A stretch of DNA of 64,000 bases from Octopus vulgaris. Its lineage: Eukaryota. The position numbers were made by a program, and so were the translations under genes. Below, piece after piece: positions 4,401 to 58,427 of this stretch (the first letter of the stretch is position 1; the number at the start of each line of letters is the position of its first letter). A model generated the notes under the pieces. That model was not told the DNA's origin. It saw only the letters and a program-made list of their open reading frames with translations, and did not search any database. Location: positions 4,588,001 to 4,652,000 of the forward strand of contig OX597817.1 of the NCBI GenBank assembly GCA_951406725.2, read 5' to 3'.

Positions 4401-5690
4401 CGATGGGCGTTCAATAAGTAATGCCTCTGACCCACTTGCAGTTGTTTGATCTAGCTGAAAGTTTGCATGTGCAATTATTTCTATCTCTATAGATTAAGTG
4501 GAAAATTATAGCTCTGAACTAATTGTGGTTTCTGATTTACAGGTGTTTGAACCGAGTCAAGTGTGAAATGGAGCCTGTTGAGTGTCGAGCAGTGATCCGG
4601 TTTTTGTATTTGAAAGGACGCACACCACGGGAGACTCTTGATGAAATGAAAGTAACTTATGGTGATGATGCCCCATCATATGACCTTGTAAAACGCTGGC
4701 ATCGTGAATTCAAACATGGTCGGAACTCTGTGGAAACAGCTCCCAGATCTGGTCGTCCCCCTTCTGCCATTGATGAGGCATCTGTCCGTCAAGTTGAGGC
4801 TGCCATTTTGGAAGATCGACGCATAACTATTCGCCAAATAGCCCATGAGGTCAAGATTAGTACCGGTCTGTGGAAACTATCATTCATGACCATTTGCATA
4901 TGCAAAAGGTGTCTGCCAGATGGATTCCCAGGTTGCTCGCACCTTTCCAGAAGCAAGAACGCGTCGAGTGCTCGAGGATGAATTTGGAGATGTGCCAAGA
5001 AGATGAGTCAAAATTTTTCAAAAGACTGATTACACAGTATGAAACCTGGGTCCATCACTATGATCCAGAGACCAAAGCCCAGTCAATGCATTGGAAGCAC
5101 CGTGACTCACTCCTCCAAAGAAGGCAAGGGTGCAGCCCTCCGCTGGCAAGGTCATGCTCACAGTCTTCTGGGACCAGGACGGAGTAGTGATGACAGATTT
5201 CCTGGCAAAGGGTACCACAATTACAGGAGCCTATTATGCTTCACTTTTGAGGAAATTAAGAGAAGCTATCAAAATCAAGAGGCGGGGCAATATCAGCAAA
5301 GGCATCCTCCTCTTGCAGGACAACGCTCCGGTCCACAACTCGCGTGTCGCCAGATCAGAAGCACAGGCGTGCGGCTATGAACTCCTCCCCCATCCCCCTA
5401 CTCTCCTGACCTTGCACTCTCTGATGTTCACCTCTTCCCAGCCATGAAGTTGTTTTTGAAAGGAAAGCGTTTCCCAGATGATGCAGCTTTGATTTCTGAA
5501 GTCAAATCGTGGTTGGAGGACCAAGCTGGGATCTTCTACAAAAACGGTCTCCAGAGCTGCGTCAAACGGTGGGAGAACTGCGTAAATCTGGGTGGTTTTT
5601 ATGTAGAAAAAGACTAATAACTGTGCCAAGTTTCGTTGCTCTACTGCAATGGGAAGTGGGTTAGGGGCATTACTTATTGAACGTCCCTCG
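4401..5690 (+). mobile_element. Full-length mariner (Tc1/mariner, DD34D type) DNA transposon, 1290 bp
   Basis: 37-bp TIRs at 4401-4437 and 5654-5690 (4 mismatches by eye), TA on both sides, transposase remnant inside. Confidence 0.95.
4568..5617 (+). pseudogene. Frameshifted mariner transposase
   Basis: N-terminal HTH region (MEPVECRAVIRFLYLKG..., PRSGRP), WIPRLL, ITQYETWVHHYDP (first catalytic D replaced by Y), LLQDNAPVH and YSPDLALSD. Frameshifts near 4868, 5110 and 5400. Confidence 0.93.
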
Positions 5691-8725: not shown

Positions 8726-8863
8726 GGATGTAATATATGTAATATATATATATATATATATACCGGATGTAATATATGTAAACTAACCCATGTGCGTCGT
8801 TGATGTTGGTCAGTTGGCTGCCCGGCTTTGACGATGTGGGGTCGTTTATTTATGATACGCCCA

Positions 8864-8910
8864 GACTTGCTGATGAATACAGAGGTATGAAATCACAGGT
8901 GATACAAGTC
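8864..8910 (+). ncRNA. Type I hammerhead ribozyme, intact core, predicted cleavage after 8904
   Basis: GACTTG-CTGATGA-ATAC agag GTAT-GAAA-TCAC ag GTGA-TA-CAAGTC; all three stems are Watson-Crick paired. Confidence 0.92.
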
Positions 8911-9320
8911 CATATTTTAAATGTCTTACTTTGAAAAATTGCATTCGGTGGGATTAGTAAAATTTTTGGTAGAAATGACTAATTTTGTCCCTCTTAGCGT
9001 GTGGCATGTATGTATAATAATGCCCTCTATATATAAATTTAATATGTTCAATGAGAAAGAATTATTTTCGAAAGTTTTTCTCTTATGAGGTTTTTCACGC
9101 TATCTACCCGATAATTTCTTGTTAAGTTTTCCTTATTAAGAAGTTGTCCTTAATTGCTAAATTTTTATTCCGAAAAAACTTCCTTTCCCGAAATGCAATT
9201 CGTAAAAGTCTGATATTTACCGGATGTAATATATGTAAACTAACCCATGTGCGTCGTTGATGTTGGTCAGTTGGCTGCTCGGCTTTGACGATGTGGGGTC
9301 GTTTATTTATGATACGCCCA

Positions 9321-9367
9321 GACTTGCTGATGAATACAGAGGTATGAAATCACAGGTGATACAAGTC
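9321..9367 (+). ncRNA. Type I hammerhead ribozyme, intact core, predicted cleavage after 9361
   Basis: Identical to 8864-8910. Confidence 0.92.
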
Positions 9368-10775
9368 CATATTTTAAATGTCTTACTTTGAAAAATTGCA
9401 TTCGGTGGGATTAGTAAAATTTTTGGTAGAAATGACTAATTTTGACCCTCTTAGCGTGTGGCATGTATGTATAATAATGCCCTCTATATATAAATTATAT
9501 ATATATATATATATATATACTCACATATTTTCACATAGATGCATTTATGCATAGGCATATACACATGAACGATATTGTATATATATACACATATTTATAT
9601 GAATATATATATGTTATACACATATATCCACACATATATCTATGTATACATACGTATATTGTATAAATACCTATAGATATATACTTAGACATACACACAT
9701 GATACATACACACATATGTATACCGGCATATAATGTTGATACAACGTCCGAATACAAGTTGGACACAGAATGATAACATAATACACAAAATGCAATTATA
9801 AGTTACATTCATATAAAAAATTTACCAGATTACAAAGAAATTAGCCCTTGGTTTCTCTTACGGTTTGGCATTTGGAAGCCAAAGTTTGATGCACTTTTAT
9901 TTCAATATCTAGTTCTAATCTTTTACCAAGGATAAGGGCAATGCCTTGCTTTCTGTAGTATTGCCTTATTTTATTGCGAGTGTTTCCTATTTCAAATTAC
10001 TCGACTGTTGGACTCCGAATGATTTTCGGAAAGGCATCGTAATATCTTGAACATATAAATGGATATTGAAGATGCTGGAGAATAAAGATAACCGCCATCA
10101 AGATAGATTCTTATGTATACATATATGCTTGCTTAGACGTATACACCGGAAAATCTACATATATGTAAGTAACCTACACACACATAGGGGAACTCATACA
10201 AACACAAATAGATAAACGCACAAAACACCCAAAAACATATAAATATTTATGAGCTAATCATTAGAATACGAAATATAGATGTTTTAATATATTTATTTCT
10301 GCATTTCTCAACTGCGATTTTCTCGAACTCGTCGTTTCTGATAAATTGAAAAAGTACTGCTAAAGTTAAAGAAAGTATATTGCTTAGATACGTATAAAAT
10401 TTACGTACTGCAAACACTAAGACACAAGATAACACACACCCACACACGAGCAAACTCATGCAAATACTCACACAGACGCGTACACTAACATATATATATA
10501 TAAGCATAAACATATACACTAAGTAAATGCATAGAGTTTTCAGAGGAAGTTGGACAGATCTCAATGACTGCAGAACGATTCATTATGTATACACACACAC
10601 ACACTCATATATATGCATACATGCATCATATTATTATATGATTATATATGCGTGCATATATGTATATATATATATATATATATAAATTTATACACACACA
10701 CACATATATATATAATATATATGACTGTGTGTGTGTCTATGTATGTATATATATAATATGTATATATATATGTAA

Positions 10776-19269: not shown

Positions 19270-20580
19270 TAATAATAATACTAAGCTGGGAATACTTGAA
19301 GTAGATGGAATTAAATACAACGATATGAAAGAAAAAAACAAAGAGAGTATCTGCATCGAGTGTGAAAAATATTGGTTTCAAAGCTGATTGCCAGAAACGT
19401 AATTTCGGCAATAAACTCGAGCGCAGTCGCAATAGTTCAGTATGGCGCTGCAATCCTGAAGTGGAATGAAAAAGAGCTAAAGGATTTGGACAGGAAGACG
19501 AGAAAGCGCCTAACGATGCAAGGAACTTATCATCCGAGTACAGACACTGATCGCCTATACATGAAGAGAGCAAATGGAGGAAGGGGACTGATAAGTGTGG
19601 AAGACTGCGTGCGTATGGAAATCAGGAGCTGAATGATATACCAATCCAAAAGTAAGGAAATGAAGGAGTATTGAAAGCAGAAAAAAATGAGAAAACAAAG
19701 GAAGAAGTCCAAAAAGGACATGGAAAAGCATTACGAAACAATGGGCTACACATTCAATTCCATGTAGTTGCAACTAAATTTGCTGGAGAACATAGATGGG
19801 TTTGACTGAAGAAAGGAACACTGAAAAAAAGAGACTGATAGTGCTATACTGGTAGCGCGAGTTTGGCCATAAACTGAAGGGTCAGATTTAGGAATGAACA
19901 AGTGTCTCCGCTGTGCCGCATCTGTAGTGGAATGGACGAAACCATTCTCCATATCACGAAGAGATGCTTTAAACTTGCCCTAAATCACTGTAAATTGATG
20001 TGACACGTTCATGCATTGAAAGTGCTACAATGAAAACTGTGCGAAAAGTGGGGGGCTAGAGAAAGGAAAGACGTGGTATGAGCACAAAACGCAGAGGGTG
20101 GCGGAGTTGGAGACTTGCAAAATCCTCTAGGATCTCCCAATTCTAACAGATCAGGTGTAGACTATAACAGACCGGACCTAGTGGTGGTGGACAAGATGCA
20201 CTACATGTGCTATATAGTTGAATTTGCATGCCCCTTTGACCTACGAATAGTCAGGAAGGAAGGCGGAAAATTAATAAATTTTAAGTGCGAAAAACCCCGG
20301 CTATGGAAATTGAAAGAGGTGAAGACAGTACCAGTTATTACTGGGTCCTTGGGGACAGCATCGGAATGCATCAAAAGAAATGTAAAGGAAATCTGTATAG
20401 AGTGCCCAATAGAACTGTTACAAAAGGTTTGCCTCCTTGGCACGGCAAAAATAATCAGGAAAGTAATATTTGAAAAGAACGGATAACATGGTGTCCTAGG
20501 TTTCAGGCAGGAAGCCCGCTACACATGCAAGACTCCAGGAGTTACAAGAAAACCTGAAATAAAAGAAAATAATAATAATA
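19270..20580 (+). mobile_element. R4/Dong-clade LINE, degenerate 3' part (thumb, CCHC knuckle, RLE, 3' UTR, (AAT)n tail)
   Basis: ELKDLDRKTRKRLTM...HPSTDTDRLYMKRANGGRGL; PLCRIC...ETILHI...C; RPDLVVVDK...IVEFACPFD; VPVITGSLG; LLQKVCLLGTAKIIRKV. Confidence 0.9.
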
Positions 20581-33645: not shown

Positions 33646-34460
33646 GCACACACATACATAAAAGCGAGAGTATATAAGTATGTGTACCTGTGTGTGTACA
33701 TATATATATAGAACTCTGTAGAAGGAAGTGTATATACGTTTGGTATTCAGTGATGTAAATATGCATCTGATAAAGCCAAATATATACATATGTGTGTGTG
33801 TGAGAGAGAGAGAGGATATCTGTGTGTGTGTGTGTCTCTGTGTGTATGCATCTATATGTGATGCTGTGATGTAAATGACTGTTAGAATTTGATGGATACT
33901 GATCTATGCATTTATAGAGAATAGACTTTGCTATTTAAGATGATGTATGGATTTTTGACATTAGATCATTAGTGCAATTTTCGATTTTGCGTTTGTTATA
34001 ACATGGAAGCAATATAGAACCTTGACTATTATTTAATTTCAGTTGGGTATAAGAGGATAAAAGAAACTGGAATTTTACACACATTCTGCCGATATCTGTA
34101 CAAAATGTCAAAGAGGCCACCGATCCTATTAGATAGTACTCAAAGTTTTCCTTAGAGCTTAAAAATGTCTTCTTGGAGGTGCACAAGGCAGGTTAGAGTA
34201 CCCGAATTCTTTCTTTCTTCCTCACTATTTCCATTAAATTCTCCAGAAGCATATACAAGCATGCATTCATGCATACACGCGAGCAACCCCATGTATATAC
34301 ATATACACGCAGGCACACAGACACACAGACACAAAAACACAGACACACAAACACACGCACACACGCACACATATATGTTTATATAAATATGGATCTGATC
34401 GATATTTATTTATCGATCTTATCAGGTGGCCAGCATGGGAATAAAAAACCTTAAAAGGTA

Positions 34461-34666
34461 ATAATTATTATTAAAATTATAATTTAGCGTTTCTAAGAGA
34501 TACCACCACGCTGGAAATAGCAGTCAAAACTTCACTCTAAAACCACATAAAATATTCATACAGCTGTATGAACATTTAATGTGGTTTTAGAGTCAAGTTT
34601 TGAATGCTATTTCCAGCGTGGTGGTAACTCTTAGATACCCTAAATTATAATTTTAATAATAATTAT
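34461..34666. repeat. Spacer-less imperfect palindrome with 103-bp arms
   Basis: Centred on cag|ctg at 34563/34564; abuts (TA)n. Confidence 0.93.
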
Positions 34667-34695
34667 ATATATATACATGCATATATATATATACA

Positions 34696-34750
<55 letters not shown>

Positions 34751-34760
34751 ATATAAATAT

Positions 34761-34838
<78 letters not shown>

Positions 34839-34981
34839 CATAACTGAGGGCAAACGAAAAAATTTTCTAATGCCAAATATGCCGAAAAATTGGACATATT
34901 GTCCATTAACCATATAATTTTTTCAAAATACGCACGCTACTCGAAAAGAGGTCGACAGAAATTTCTTAAAAATTCCATTAT

Positions 34982-35039
34982 TTCTATATCGGACCGATTT
35001 CAGGGTTAGCTACTAAGAGCCCTCTCTTCGTCAGTGATA
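34982..35039 (-). ncRNA. Type I hammerhead, copy 1 (core intact, stems I and II weakened)
   Basis: TATCA-CTGACGA-AGAG...CCCT-GAAA-TCGG t CCGA-TA-TAGAA. Confidence 0.7.
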
Positions 35040-35485
35040 CATGTAGCAAAAGAAATAAATGAGATACTTACTCATACCCATGGAAGAAGCAAATACTAAG
35101 TCATGGGCACAACTAAGTACCCCAAATACATCCAAATTAGAAATACTCCAGCCTATTCGAGGCACGTGCGATTTGAACTGAGGCTCTCACAGAGTGAGTT
35201 AGTTAGTCCGGAAGTGAACGCTAAAATTTATATAAAATGTGAGGATGAAATTCTTTTCCAAAATAAATATTTTCTCGAAAAAATTTTTATCAATGGCCAG
35301 CATATTAAAAAATACCTTTAGCGGTTAAATTTATAAACAGTTCATAAATGAGGGCAAAGGAAAAAAATTTCTAATGCCGAATATGCCGAAAAATTGGACA
35401 TATTGTCCATTAACCATATAATTTTTTCACCATACGCACGCTACTCGAAAAGAGGTCGACAGAAATTTCTAAAAAATTCCATTAT

Positions 35486-35543
35486 TACCATATCTGACAG
35501 ATTTCAGAGTTAGCTACTAAGAGTCCTCTCTTCGTCTGTGATA
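35486..35543 (-). ncRNA. Type I hammerhead, copy 2 (U4 to A core mutation)
   Basis: TATCA-CAGACGA-AGAG...CTCT-GAAA-TCTG t CAGA-TA-TGGTA. Confidence 0.7.
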
Positions 35544-35565
35544 CATTTATTTCTTTTGCCACATG

Positions 35566-35623
35566 TATCACTGACGAAGAGAGGACTCTTAGTAGCTAAC
35601 TCTGAAATCTGTCAGATATGGTA
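35566..35623 (+). ncRNA. Type I hammerhead, copy 3, intact, predicted cleavage after 35618
   Basis: TATCA-CTGACGA-AGAG(aggactcttagtagctaa)CTCT-GAAA-TCTG t CAGA-TA-TGGTA. Confidence 0.87.
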
Positions 35624-35872
35624 ATAATGGAATTTTTAGAAATTTCTGTCGACCTCTTTTCGAGTAGCGTGCGTATGGTGAAAAAATTATATGGTTAATG
35701 GACAATATGTCCAATTTTTCGGCATATTTGGCATTAGAAAATTTTTTCGTTTGCCCTCATTTATGAATTGTTTATAAATTTAACCGTTAAAGGTATTTTT
35801 TAATATGCTGGCCATTGATAAAATATTTTTCGAGAAAATATTTATTTTGGAAAAAAATTTTATCCTCACATT

Positions 35873-35939
<67 letters not shown>

Positions 35940-36056
35940 AATGTCTCTGTGTGTGTGTGTGTAATGTAGAAGTTTGAAAAGGAACACACGAGTTGATATA
36001 TATATATGGAAAAAATCAAGGTTGAAAAAGCTAGGATAATTTTGTGAAATACATTT

Positions 36057-56717: not shown

Positions 56718-57407
56718 ATGTATTTATGTATTTATGTATGTATGTATGTATGTATGTATGTATGTATGTATGTATACATTTGTGTGTATGTGTGTGCTTA
56801 TGTGTGTAGTCTGAGTGTGTGTGTGAGTGAGTTCTCTGCGAATATTAACTTGTCAGAGATTGAAATATTTCATATGATATTACATTATATGATATGATCT
56901 AATGTGATAAGATATCGTATCATATAAAATTTGAGAATCTTCATTATCAAAGATATTATTATGCAATCTAATAAAAATATTATCATAAATATGCAGAAAT
57001 GGTTGGGGCTGATGTTTGAAACGACACCACATAAATCGGAATGCTTCGCAGTATAGGCTACATCCCTATATACACTATATTCAGTGTTGTTCGAAACCTA
57101 GTTTGCATTTCAATTATATTCATGATTTTCTTTTTATATATTTTTTTCATAGTTATCAGCATTCCAGCGAAAAATTATTTGCTTTCTTTTCATTTTTTTG
57201 TGTATAAAAGTATAAATTATCCAATTAATGATTTTCAACATACACGCGCAAACACACACGTCTATGTCCGTAGGTATGTGTGTATGTACATATGTATGTA
57301 AGTATGCATGTAAGTATGTATGTATCTATCTGTCTGTCTGTCTCTCCGTCTGCCTGACTGACTATCGGTCTGTCTGTCTGCTTCTCTGTCTCAATTTCTG
57401 TCTTCCC

Positions 57408-57492
<85 letters not shown>

Positions 57493-57494
<2 letters not shown>

Positions 57495-58427
57495 GGCCTG
57501 GCAGTGCTACCGAGAAGCGCTACCCGTTCGGGATAAGCTGTACAGACACGGCTCGAGAAACACGGGGCCGACCTGCCCGAGATGCGGTCAGAGCGACGAA
57601 ACCGTTCTGCACGCACTCGTGCAGTGTCCAACAATTTCCGACCTGTGGGCTTATGTCGAACAATTGCTGTTACGTGTGGGACGAGTCGGTTTATCAGCTG
57701 AGTCTATCGTCAATATTGTCACGCCTCCTTCCTTCAAACGGGAAGGAAGAGCTATTTTCATCATCCTTGTGGCTATGGCGAAAGAATGTATCTGGTGGAC
57801 GCGTCTGAAAGGGTTGGAGACAAACACTTTCCTCCCTGGTCAATCTCTCATCAACTTCTTCAAGTACCACTTGAAAAGGAAAGTGAGCGTAGAGAGGTAA
57901 GATTTGTCTAGCGAATGTTTTAAAAAAAGATGGGTGAATGTAGCAAGGATGGCACGTATGAATGACGAAGCCACGTTGAGCATAATCCTATGAACACAGA
58001 AATTGAAAACAGAGGGTTACCCACTTGCAAACATATGTGGTAACATATAACAATATTGACCAAGGTTACCGTGGTCTTTTTCGTAGGCTTTTCTTCCCAC
58101 GGATAAACCTTACTTGCTTTCCCCTTTACACCATATATCATAACACTGTGATACACGATCCCTATTGATCGTTTTTTTTTCCTCTTCCCCTTTTTTCTTC
58201 TTTTTTCATTTCTCTTTTCTTTTGTTCCCTTTCCTCTTCTTCTTTTTTTTATTTTAATTTTTTTTTTTTGTTCTTTTCTTCCCTTTTACGATCCCTCTTG
58301 ATCGAAAACCTACGCCACACCTTTTATTTGTTTCTTTTGTTTTTGGTTTTTTTCATCCCCCAAAAGAAAAGCTCTACCTTGTAACTTGTCCCATCTGTGT
58401 GCAGCCCTGTGTGGCCAATAAAGAAAC

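Follow-up and report, generated by a model that had tools for sequence, protein, structure and literature searches.

Introduction

Among described elements, the closest to the locus analysed here are the non-LTR retrozymes of animals. As defined by Cervera and de la Pena (2020; PMC7229834), these include mussel elements of approximately 350-390 bp that are expressed as circles. More recently, Li, Clavereau and Pollet (2026; 10.64898/2026.07.22.740005) tied retrozymes to the pLTRs of Penelope-like elements (PLEs) and treated them as non-autonomous PLE derivatives, with units ranging from 51 to 972 bp; cleavage was seen in one of the nine dimers tested, and the mechanism of mobilisation was left as an open question. 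Hammerheads have also been described in PLEs: in Schistosoma mansoni, pairs of them lie approximately 100-700 bp apart on opposite strands, and hammerhead families are rich in compensatory changes (Cervera and de la Pena, 2014; PMC4209133).

In 2013, Arkhipova (PMC3846280) reported PLE structures in which two direct pLTRs are joined by an adjacent inverted one, mostly head-to-head and with a 15-bp overlap, and self-priming was proposed to account for them. The same tandem-plus-inverted layout is drawn as typical in the legend to Fig. 2 of Craig (2021; PMC8557442), where (TA)n is also given as the target of several PLE clades. Biochemically, PLE protein in purified form was shown to nick the two strands and to extend each of them, to initiate internally on its RNA and to use RNA that has not been processed (Frangieh, 2024; PMC11167929).

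Here, we analysed a 64,000-nucleotide stretch of Octopus vulgaris DNA (the window), which is AT-rich, of animal type and rich in simple repeats. Positions 34837-35873 hold a non-coding element of approximately 1 kb, inserted in a TA microsatellite and carrying three hammerhead motifs. As a single locus it is of little weight, hammerhead tandem repeats being known from many animals and the layout being the textbook Penelope pattern. It is nevertheless evidence on two questions, the mobilisation of retrozymes and the formation of tandem and inverted PLE structures, which are called open in Li et al. (2026) and in Craig (2021), respectively: the insertion signature of a PLE is seen here on a retrozyme unit devoid of an ORF, and the unlike tandem units argue against one circular template.

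Architecture of the insert

The features of the insert and of its target site are collected in Table 1. The initial annotation had placed two minus-strand hammerheads 504 nt apart, followed by an inverted copy of about 312 bp with an intact plus-strand hammerhead. Recomputed motif coordinates bear this out, with H17 sites at 34987(-) and 35491(-), arms of 312 and 311 bp, a plus-strand site at 35618 and a copy 3 that passes a strict motif scan. This anatomy stands, while the (TA)n target, the high-copy family, the Penelope-like architecture and the damage in copies 1 and 2 had been omitted from it.

Table 1. Features of the insert and its target site, in window coordinates.
Feature	Positions	Strand	Details
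Left (TA)n target run	34770..34836	.	belongs to an AT-rich simple-repeat block from ~34665
Left arm	34837..35546	-	710-nt partial direct tandem, 1.4 units
Hammerhead copy 1	34982..35039	-	C3 35034, H17 34987
Predicted 504-nt monomer, cleavage site to cleavage site	34987..35490	-	35% GC
Inverted repeat, left half, 312 nt	35235..35546	-	arm alignment
Hammerhead copy 2	35486..35543	-	C3 35538, H17 35491
CAT/ATG microhomology, common to both arms	35544..35546	.	sequence
Right arm, 5'-truncated monomer	35544..35873	+	start -74 nt, end +255 nt from its own cleavage site
16-nt spacer	35547..35562	+	part of copy 3, the unit's normal sequence upstream of the hammerhead
Inverted repeat, right half, 311 bp	35563..35873	+	arm alignment
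Hammerhead copy 3	35566..35623	+	C3 35571, H17 35618
Right (TA)n target run	35875..35940	.	sequence

At its 5' end the left arm is truncated, with 55 nt left before the copy 2 cleavage site, and its other end lies 150 nt downstream of the copy 1 site. Both outer ends of the insert are 3' in the ribozyme sense, at +150 and +255 nt after a cleavage site and hence 105 nt apart in unit position, and the two arms meet head-to-head at a joint situated 55 and 74 nt before a cleavage site. No target-site duplication is readable within (TA)n flanks of this kind.

That such a structure might be an artefact of assembly or library preparation, namely a fold-back chimera, has to be weighed, given that tandem and inverted PLE structures trouble assemblies (Craig, 2021; PMC8557442) and that the window's own joint is absent among the matches listed from sequencing contigs (32 of 10,847 pieces), an absence that in itself proves nothing. 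We regard this as very improbable: alignment of the arms shows 11 differences in 312 columns, all but one of them substitutions; beyond these 312 nt the mirror symmetry ends and the two sides run on into unlike sequence; and similar joints occur in contigs of three organisms.

A high-copy family of non-coding units

Parts of the insert were found in 20 of the 24 listed runs, labelled as four organisms; none reaches half of its words, and the best run holds a fraction of 0.40. None of the listed runs with parts of the insert is recorded as RNA, which says nothing about expression. A query comprising one unit plus the joint (35046-35585) was matched to the contigs of four runs, X1, X3, X4 and X10, and the contigs fitting the unit numbered 4581, 3629, 2385 and 101, respectively, figures that are not copy numbers, with the RNA status of X10 a guess only. 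Finer details were read among the matches listed only, which cover 40 of 80 letter rows, 15 of 29 joints, 12 of 17 inserts and 24 of 594 loose ends. Judged from these contigs, the 504-nt unit is a high-copy family that is present in three other organisms.

The tandem joint of the 504-nt unit (35546 to 35046 plus 3 letters) is present in X3 and X10. Among the matches listed, loose ends at 35271 pass via TTTTATCC into (AT)n in X3 (26), X4 (22) and X10 (4), and the right end of copy 3 carries this same end word; the right end of the insert, at 35873, is therefore where the family usually ends on its 3' side. The left end of the insert was not seen among the loose ends listed (24 of 594).

Two further forms were observed in X1, X3, X4 and X10. 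One is a divergent sub-family, whose stem II insert is a different one and whose stem III is TTGG-GA-CCAA; the other, a common variant, is shorter because approximately 25-35 nt before the 3' end are absent.

The 504-nt monomer is predicted to fold as a circle at -124.7 kcal/mol, compared with -103.7 +/- 5.5 for 40 shuffles (z -3.8). Its sole scanned frame, of 73 amino acids at 35100-35318, has no Pfam match, and no RT or GIY-YIG family, and with it no autonomous partner, was detected within the insert or among 150 of the 173 longer frames of the window. Several retrozyme traits were found: a 504-nt tandem unit with a type I hammerhead in each, 35% GC, no protein, thousands of contigs in each of three runs from three organisms and a monomer predicted to be highly self-paired. 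Metagenome scans with a 23-nt stretch gave no match, and nine matches to an 18-nt stretch were dismissed as chance, none extending beyond 21 nt; viral contigs gave no match either.

Set beside the animal non-LTR retrozymes, the insert shares with them the short, non-coding, low-GC tandem unit with one type I hammerhead each, the high copy number, the predicted self-paired circle and an occurrence mostly as one to few units per locus. Its 504-nt unit is above the 150-450 bp of the retrozymes of 2020 (PMC7229834) and within the 51-972 bp of the 2026 paper. The inverted head sets it apart: the word 'inverted' is absent from the text of PMC7229834 and occurs in that of Li et al. (2026) in a reference title only. 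Among the literature listings searched, none describes the 504-nt family or a retrozyme that lacks an ORF and carries an inverted head. Li et al. (2026) call a retrozyme 'active' if it has complete hammerheads in two successive units; these were not found at this locus, copies 1 and 2 being damaged; this concerns the activity of the locus and not its family membership. The 'active' criterion aside, every testable family feature was found. Neither the kind of element nor its arrangement is new, and the insert is an ordinary, decayed example of both.

Origin of the inverted head

The insert resembles EN+ PLE insertions in its partial direct tandem with an adjacent inverted, 5'-truncated, head-to-head copy (PMC3846280, PMC8557442), in the short asymmetric overlap and microhomology of its joint, in its (TA)n target, and in its defined 3' end, the family reaching (AT)n at the place homologous to 35873. 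Unlike these insertions, it holds no RT/GIY-YIG frame between its direct copies, and its ends lie 105 nt apart, where PLEs have an optional 30-40-nt tail at one end. A second likeness is to the 5' inversions generated by twin priming of L1 (PMC11702581), in which both target ends are primed, the 3' ends of the cDNAs are joined by 2-3 nt of microhomology and both outer ends face the 3' side of the RNA. In L1, however, the segments are adjacent and barely overlap on the RNA, whereas those of the insert have 312 nt in common, and the insert has no poly(A).

Since insertions of PLEs are known to combine a partial tandem and an inverted copy, placed head-to-head within (TA)n, we read the insert as a non-autonomous retrozyme moved by a PLE. 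It is a decayed non-LTR retrozyme, probably inserted into (TA)n in one event by a Penelope-like RT and GIY-YIG endonuclease acting in trans. In the mechanism that we propose, the PLE protein would nick both strands of (TA)n and prime two cDNAs, with uncleaved precursor RNA from a source with two unlike tandem units as templates. The cDNA of the right flank would start in the upstream unit, at position +255 where family members usually end, and run to -74, giving copy 3, and that of the left flank would start at +150 of the downstream unit and supply copy 1 and the linker. Copy 2 could then arise by one of two routes. The 3' ATG of the first cDNA might pair with its own CAT 16 nt back, so that extension writes copy 2, a fold-back that the orientation of the spacer would fit directly; or the left-flank cDNA might run on to -55 and the 3' ends of both cDNAs anneal at CAT/ATG. 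The two routes would lead to the same product, and sequence alone does not separate them. By either, copies 2 and 3 would derive from one unit and copy 1 from the next, the TCTG/CAGA form of stem III would likely have been present in the source unit already, and the locus would have drifted by approximately 2.5% since insertion.

The letters that distinguish the three copies are consistent with this scheme. Over the 206-nt span that they have in common, there are 14 differences between copies 1 and 2, 10 between copies 1 and 3, and 5 between copies 2 and 3, the pair that had already been named as the closest. With the polarity of changes taken from the majority letters of other organisms, six sites (35259, 35264, 35322, 35431, 35495 and 35499) have a non-majority letter that is common to copies 2 and 3, and copy 1 has the majority letter at all three of these six sites that it covers; at 35452, all three copies differ from the family majority. 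Copy 1, in turn, carries minority family variants at 35508 (11-32% in three DNA-type runs) and at the equivalent of 35524 (two X4 contigs). Four of the eight changes private to copy 2 are A to G on the plus strand.

The initial annotation had proposed two different template variants meeting at the inversion. Unlike units are indeed indicated, but the boundary between them runs between copies 1 and 2, in the direct tandem; one source with unlike units therefore suffices, and no switch between variants is needed at the inversion. A rival account dispenses with unlike units altogether, deriving all copies from one template, such as a circular monomer copied for more than one round, with the letters of copies 2 and 3 produced by later arm-to-arm conversion and the stem III change by templated mutation in a short DNA palindrome instead of selection. 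Closely spaced inverted arms convert each other and quasi-palindromes yield paired mutations, and stem III is a near-perfect 11-bp palindrome. Besides, Cervera and de la Pena (2014; PMC4209133) proposed that tandems of PLEs and retrozymes are made by rolling-circle copying. We hold this account to be quite improbable, in that it would require recurrent mutation for the two family-segregating variants of copy 1 and that the 11 differences remaining between the arms imply that conversion is not ongoing.

Private changes are uneven, with at least eight in copy 2 and only 0-3 in copy 3 (binomial p 0.008 to 0.23, according to how three unpolarised sites fall). This is unexpected under a single event followed by even drift and would fit a two-step history, in which an older partial tandem (copies 1 and 2) later received, head-to-head at its 5' end, a monomer of the TCTG/CAGA sub-lineage. 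The left arm as a whole has approximately 2.5% private changes, against 0-3 in the 311 nt of copy 3, and the PLE protein cuts its own pLTR in vitro (Frangieh, 2024; PMC11167929), both in keeping with two insertions. For this to have happened, however, the two 5' ends must have come to lie no more than 19 nt apart on the unit, and one and the same rare variant (at most ~1% of depth at either site in X1, X3 and X4) must have landed twice at one place. Inverted heads are a routine outcome of single PLE insertions, and we consider a second insertion unlikely. Chance, error-prone second-strand synthesis, two-step insertion or an edited template may explain the uneven changes in copies 2 and 3.

Returning to the single insertion by a PLE, a more specific reading is that the locus records integration by two-end priming of the Penelope type on an uncleaved linear multimer with unlike units, and not rolling-circle copying of one cleaved and circularised monomer. 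We put this forward tentatively and regard it as rather doubtful. If it were true, the abundant circles of retrozymes would be a side product, and high-copy, (TA)n-targeted families would offer thousands of joints for solving how inverted heads form in Penelope elements.

Joints and microhomology

The spacer had been described as the reverse complement of the unit's own continuation, joined through a CAT microhomology in a manner fitting a template switch, and each element of this description holds: 18 of 19 letters of plus-strand 35544-35562 match the unit sequence upstream of copy 1, the overlap is 3 nt, and a template switch or fold-back fits the arrangement. In family contigs, a 35062-35544 joint and loose ends at 35544 and 35546 back the spacer as normal unit sequence. 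This fifth 'opposite strands' joint, being normal unit, was excluded from the comparison below, as were the joints at 35081, 35233, 35314 and 35515, in which head-to-head and tail-to-tail are not told apart.

Further backing for microhomology comes from the rest of the family. Among the matches listed, four other head-to-head joints were found, at 35345, 35354 and 35477 in X1 (35477 also in X4) and at 35310 in X3; the overlap amounts to 3 nt at two of them and to 1 nt at a third, and the last carries a single inserted letter and overlaps by no more than 1 nt. Together with the window's own joint, three of five thus overlap by at least 3 nt, for which the null is 6.7% (p 0.003), and without it two of four do (p 0.024), the other joints lying in short contigs (shorter side 22 letters where given), being scored with window letters as a stand-in and including one that requires a 6-nt duplication. 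Inverted arms seemed to start preferentially a short way upstream of the hammerhead, but this was rejected as an ascertainment effect of the query stretch.

In X3 and X4, the opposite-strand joint 35314-35489 has one side at a distance of 1 nt from the base that directly follows the cleavage site; should its orientation be head-to-head, this joint would be a copy of a cleaved RNA.

Paired changes in stem III

Exactly as first noted, copy 1 has a stem III of the form TCGG-T-CCGA and the other two copies have TCTG-T-CAGA, the derived letters of copy 2 being at 35499 and 35495. At these two sites the family has the letters of copy 1 (TCGG/CCGA) at no less than 99% of depth in all four runs, and the TCTG/CAGA letters reach at most ~1% of depth at either site in X1, X3 and X4. 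Because TCGG/CCGA is the family majority, the double compensatory change counts as one derived event, TCTG/CAGA, common to copies 2 and 3, and not as three separate observations. The chance that, as independent and neutral changes, two of six or seven derived sites would hit both sides of one of 13 pairs and leave it Watson-Crick is approximately 0.001-0.004. The changed pair closes the 3-nt loop in the monomer and lies in the shared palindromic helix in the dimer.

Other paired variants were read by eye from the contig table. Among the matches listed, loose ends at 35493 show the stem III TTGG-GA-CCAA in X3 (19) and X4 (8), a change situated at another base pair than TCTG/CAGA. Loose ends also contain the stem II 5' halves AGGG and GGAG and the 3' halves CCCT and CTCC, which could pair, though they are not phased on one contig.

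Behind the double change lies either selection that acted on the source lineage or a double mutation templated within a short palindrome. It carries no information on selection at the insert locus, where two copies have decayed. The structure-level selection that the initial annotation had inferred finds support in the family, through the low chance of such a pair and the TTGG/CCAA variant, but not at the locus, where two of three copies are decayed.

Condition and predicted activity of the hammerheads

We ran a strict scan requiring the core plus three helices on the window and on 150 order-2 Markov simulations of it. The window yielded three motifs (copy 3 and those at 8870 and 9327) and the simulated windows none, so these motifs are not due to chance. 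Within the insert, only copy 3 passes. The type I core, CUGANGA ... GAAA ... UH, is present in copies 1 and 3 and absent in copy 2, in which U4 is replaced by A at 35537; helix pairs are formed at 13 of 13 positions in copies 2 and 3 and at 10 of 13 in copy 1. A change of U4 in the hammerhead core abolishes activity, and the distal stem I of copy 2 has, in addition, been removed by truncation. Copy 1 retains an intact core with two of five stem I pairs broken (34985, 34983) and one of four in stem II (an A.C mismatch at 35004). Copy 3, the only intact motif, is of type I, with a stem I of 5 bp, a stem II of 4 bp plus an extension, and a palindromic stem III of 4 bp plus a GUC loop as a monomer.

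Rfam returned no hammerhead family at gathering score over the whole window and, at E up to 10 over 34400-36000, 57 matches of which none was a hammerhead, only chance ones to microRNA hairpins. The intact motifs at 8870 and 9327 were likewise missed at gathering score, which indicates that the Rfam models do not cover these variants. Compared with PLE hammerheads as described in PMC4209133, those of the insert are alike in their short helix I (5 bp), extended helix II and palindromic helix III, and unlike in having A10.1-U11.1 where G-C is usual, in lacking an extra base after A9, and in that their helix III, with 4 bp and a 3-nt loop, is long enough to form in the monomer. The antisense strand of the unit gave no match in the strict scan. 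The opposite-strand motif of the insert arises from inversion of the DNA, and hammerheads in both polarities, as in viroid-like RNAs, are therefore not a property of the unit.

The initial annotation had also stated that transcription from either direction meets a hammerhead. The motifs are there on both strands; their activity is another matter. Expressed as secondary-structure energies without tertiary terms, the cost of forcing the hammerhead fold is 9 kcal/mol for copy 3 alone, whose predicted ground state is thus not the active fold, and 20 kcal/mol for copy 1 alone. For copy 3 it rises to 21 kcal/mol within its own 330-nt arm and to approximately 97 kcal/mol in plus-strand read-through, and remains the same if the chain stops 20 nt past the cleavage site. 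Most likely, a plus-strand read-through RNA would bury copy 3 in the 312-bp hairpin and leave it uncut. Minus-strand read-through would meet the core mutant first and then the copy with the broken stem I, and would probably not be cleaved. With copy 3 buried, copy 2 mutated in its core and copy 1 broken in stem I, cleavage from both directions is unlikely.

In its strongest form, the initial annotation would make the locus a working ribozyme cassette that cuts RNA from either direction and is maintained here by selection, a reading to which we attach very little credence. It could draw on the intactness and few private changes of copy 3 and on a stem III that is paired in all three copies, but the penalties and the lesions in copies 1 and 2 speak against it (20 kcal/mol for copy 1 against 9 for copy 3, each alone; 97 for copy 3 in read-through RNA, even in the nascent chain), and the low divergence of copy 3 extends over all 311 nt, not the ribozyme alone. 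If transcribed, the locus is predicted by folding to yield a 312-bp hairpin rather than a cleaving ribozyme, and such insertions would be sources of long double-stranded RNA and not of cleavage.

Other repeats in the window

A second hammerhead repeat occupies 8762-9497 (+), with 1.6 copies of a 457-nt unit that differ at 3 of 279 columns. Both of its motifs are intact (C3 8870 and 9327), it lies between (TA)n runs, and its predicted circular fold has a z of -4.8; it is a young repeat and, compared with the 504-nt insert, the more promising candidate active retrozyme. Kinship between the 504-nt and 457-nt families was considered and rejected as unproven, the similarity being strong against a crude shuffle but reached by 12 of 300 order-3 Markov nulls.

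A broken mariner transposase (HTH_48, Transposase_1) lies at 4523-5444 (+) and a zf-RVT fragment of a non-LTR element at 57358-57897 (+). The frames at 20082, 22376 and 41754 have no Pfam match; by eye they resemble the restriction-like endonuclease ends of R2/R4-type elements. No tRNA gene was found in the window.

At 34461-34666, 170 nt left of the insert, there is a 206-nt palindrome with 103-nt arms that are 93% complementary and have no loop. It is single in the window, has no hammerhead match and is either MITE-like or the stump of another inverted insertion. Finally, the ribozyme-sense 3' ends at 34837, 35873 and 9497 each follow a CCTC word by approximately 7-14 nt in AT-rich sequence, and this word is a possible candidate for a shared start signal of reverse transcription.
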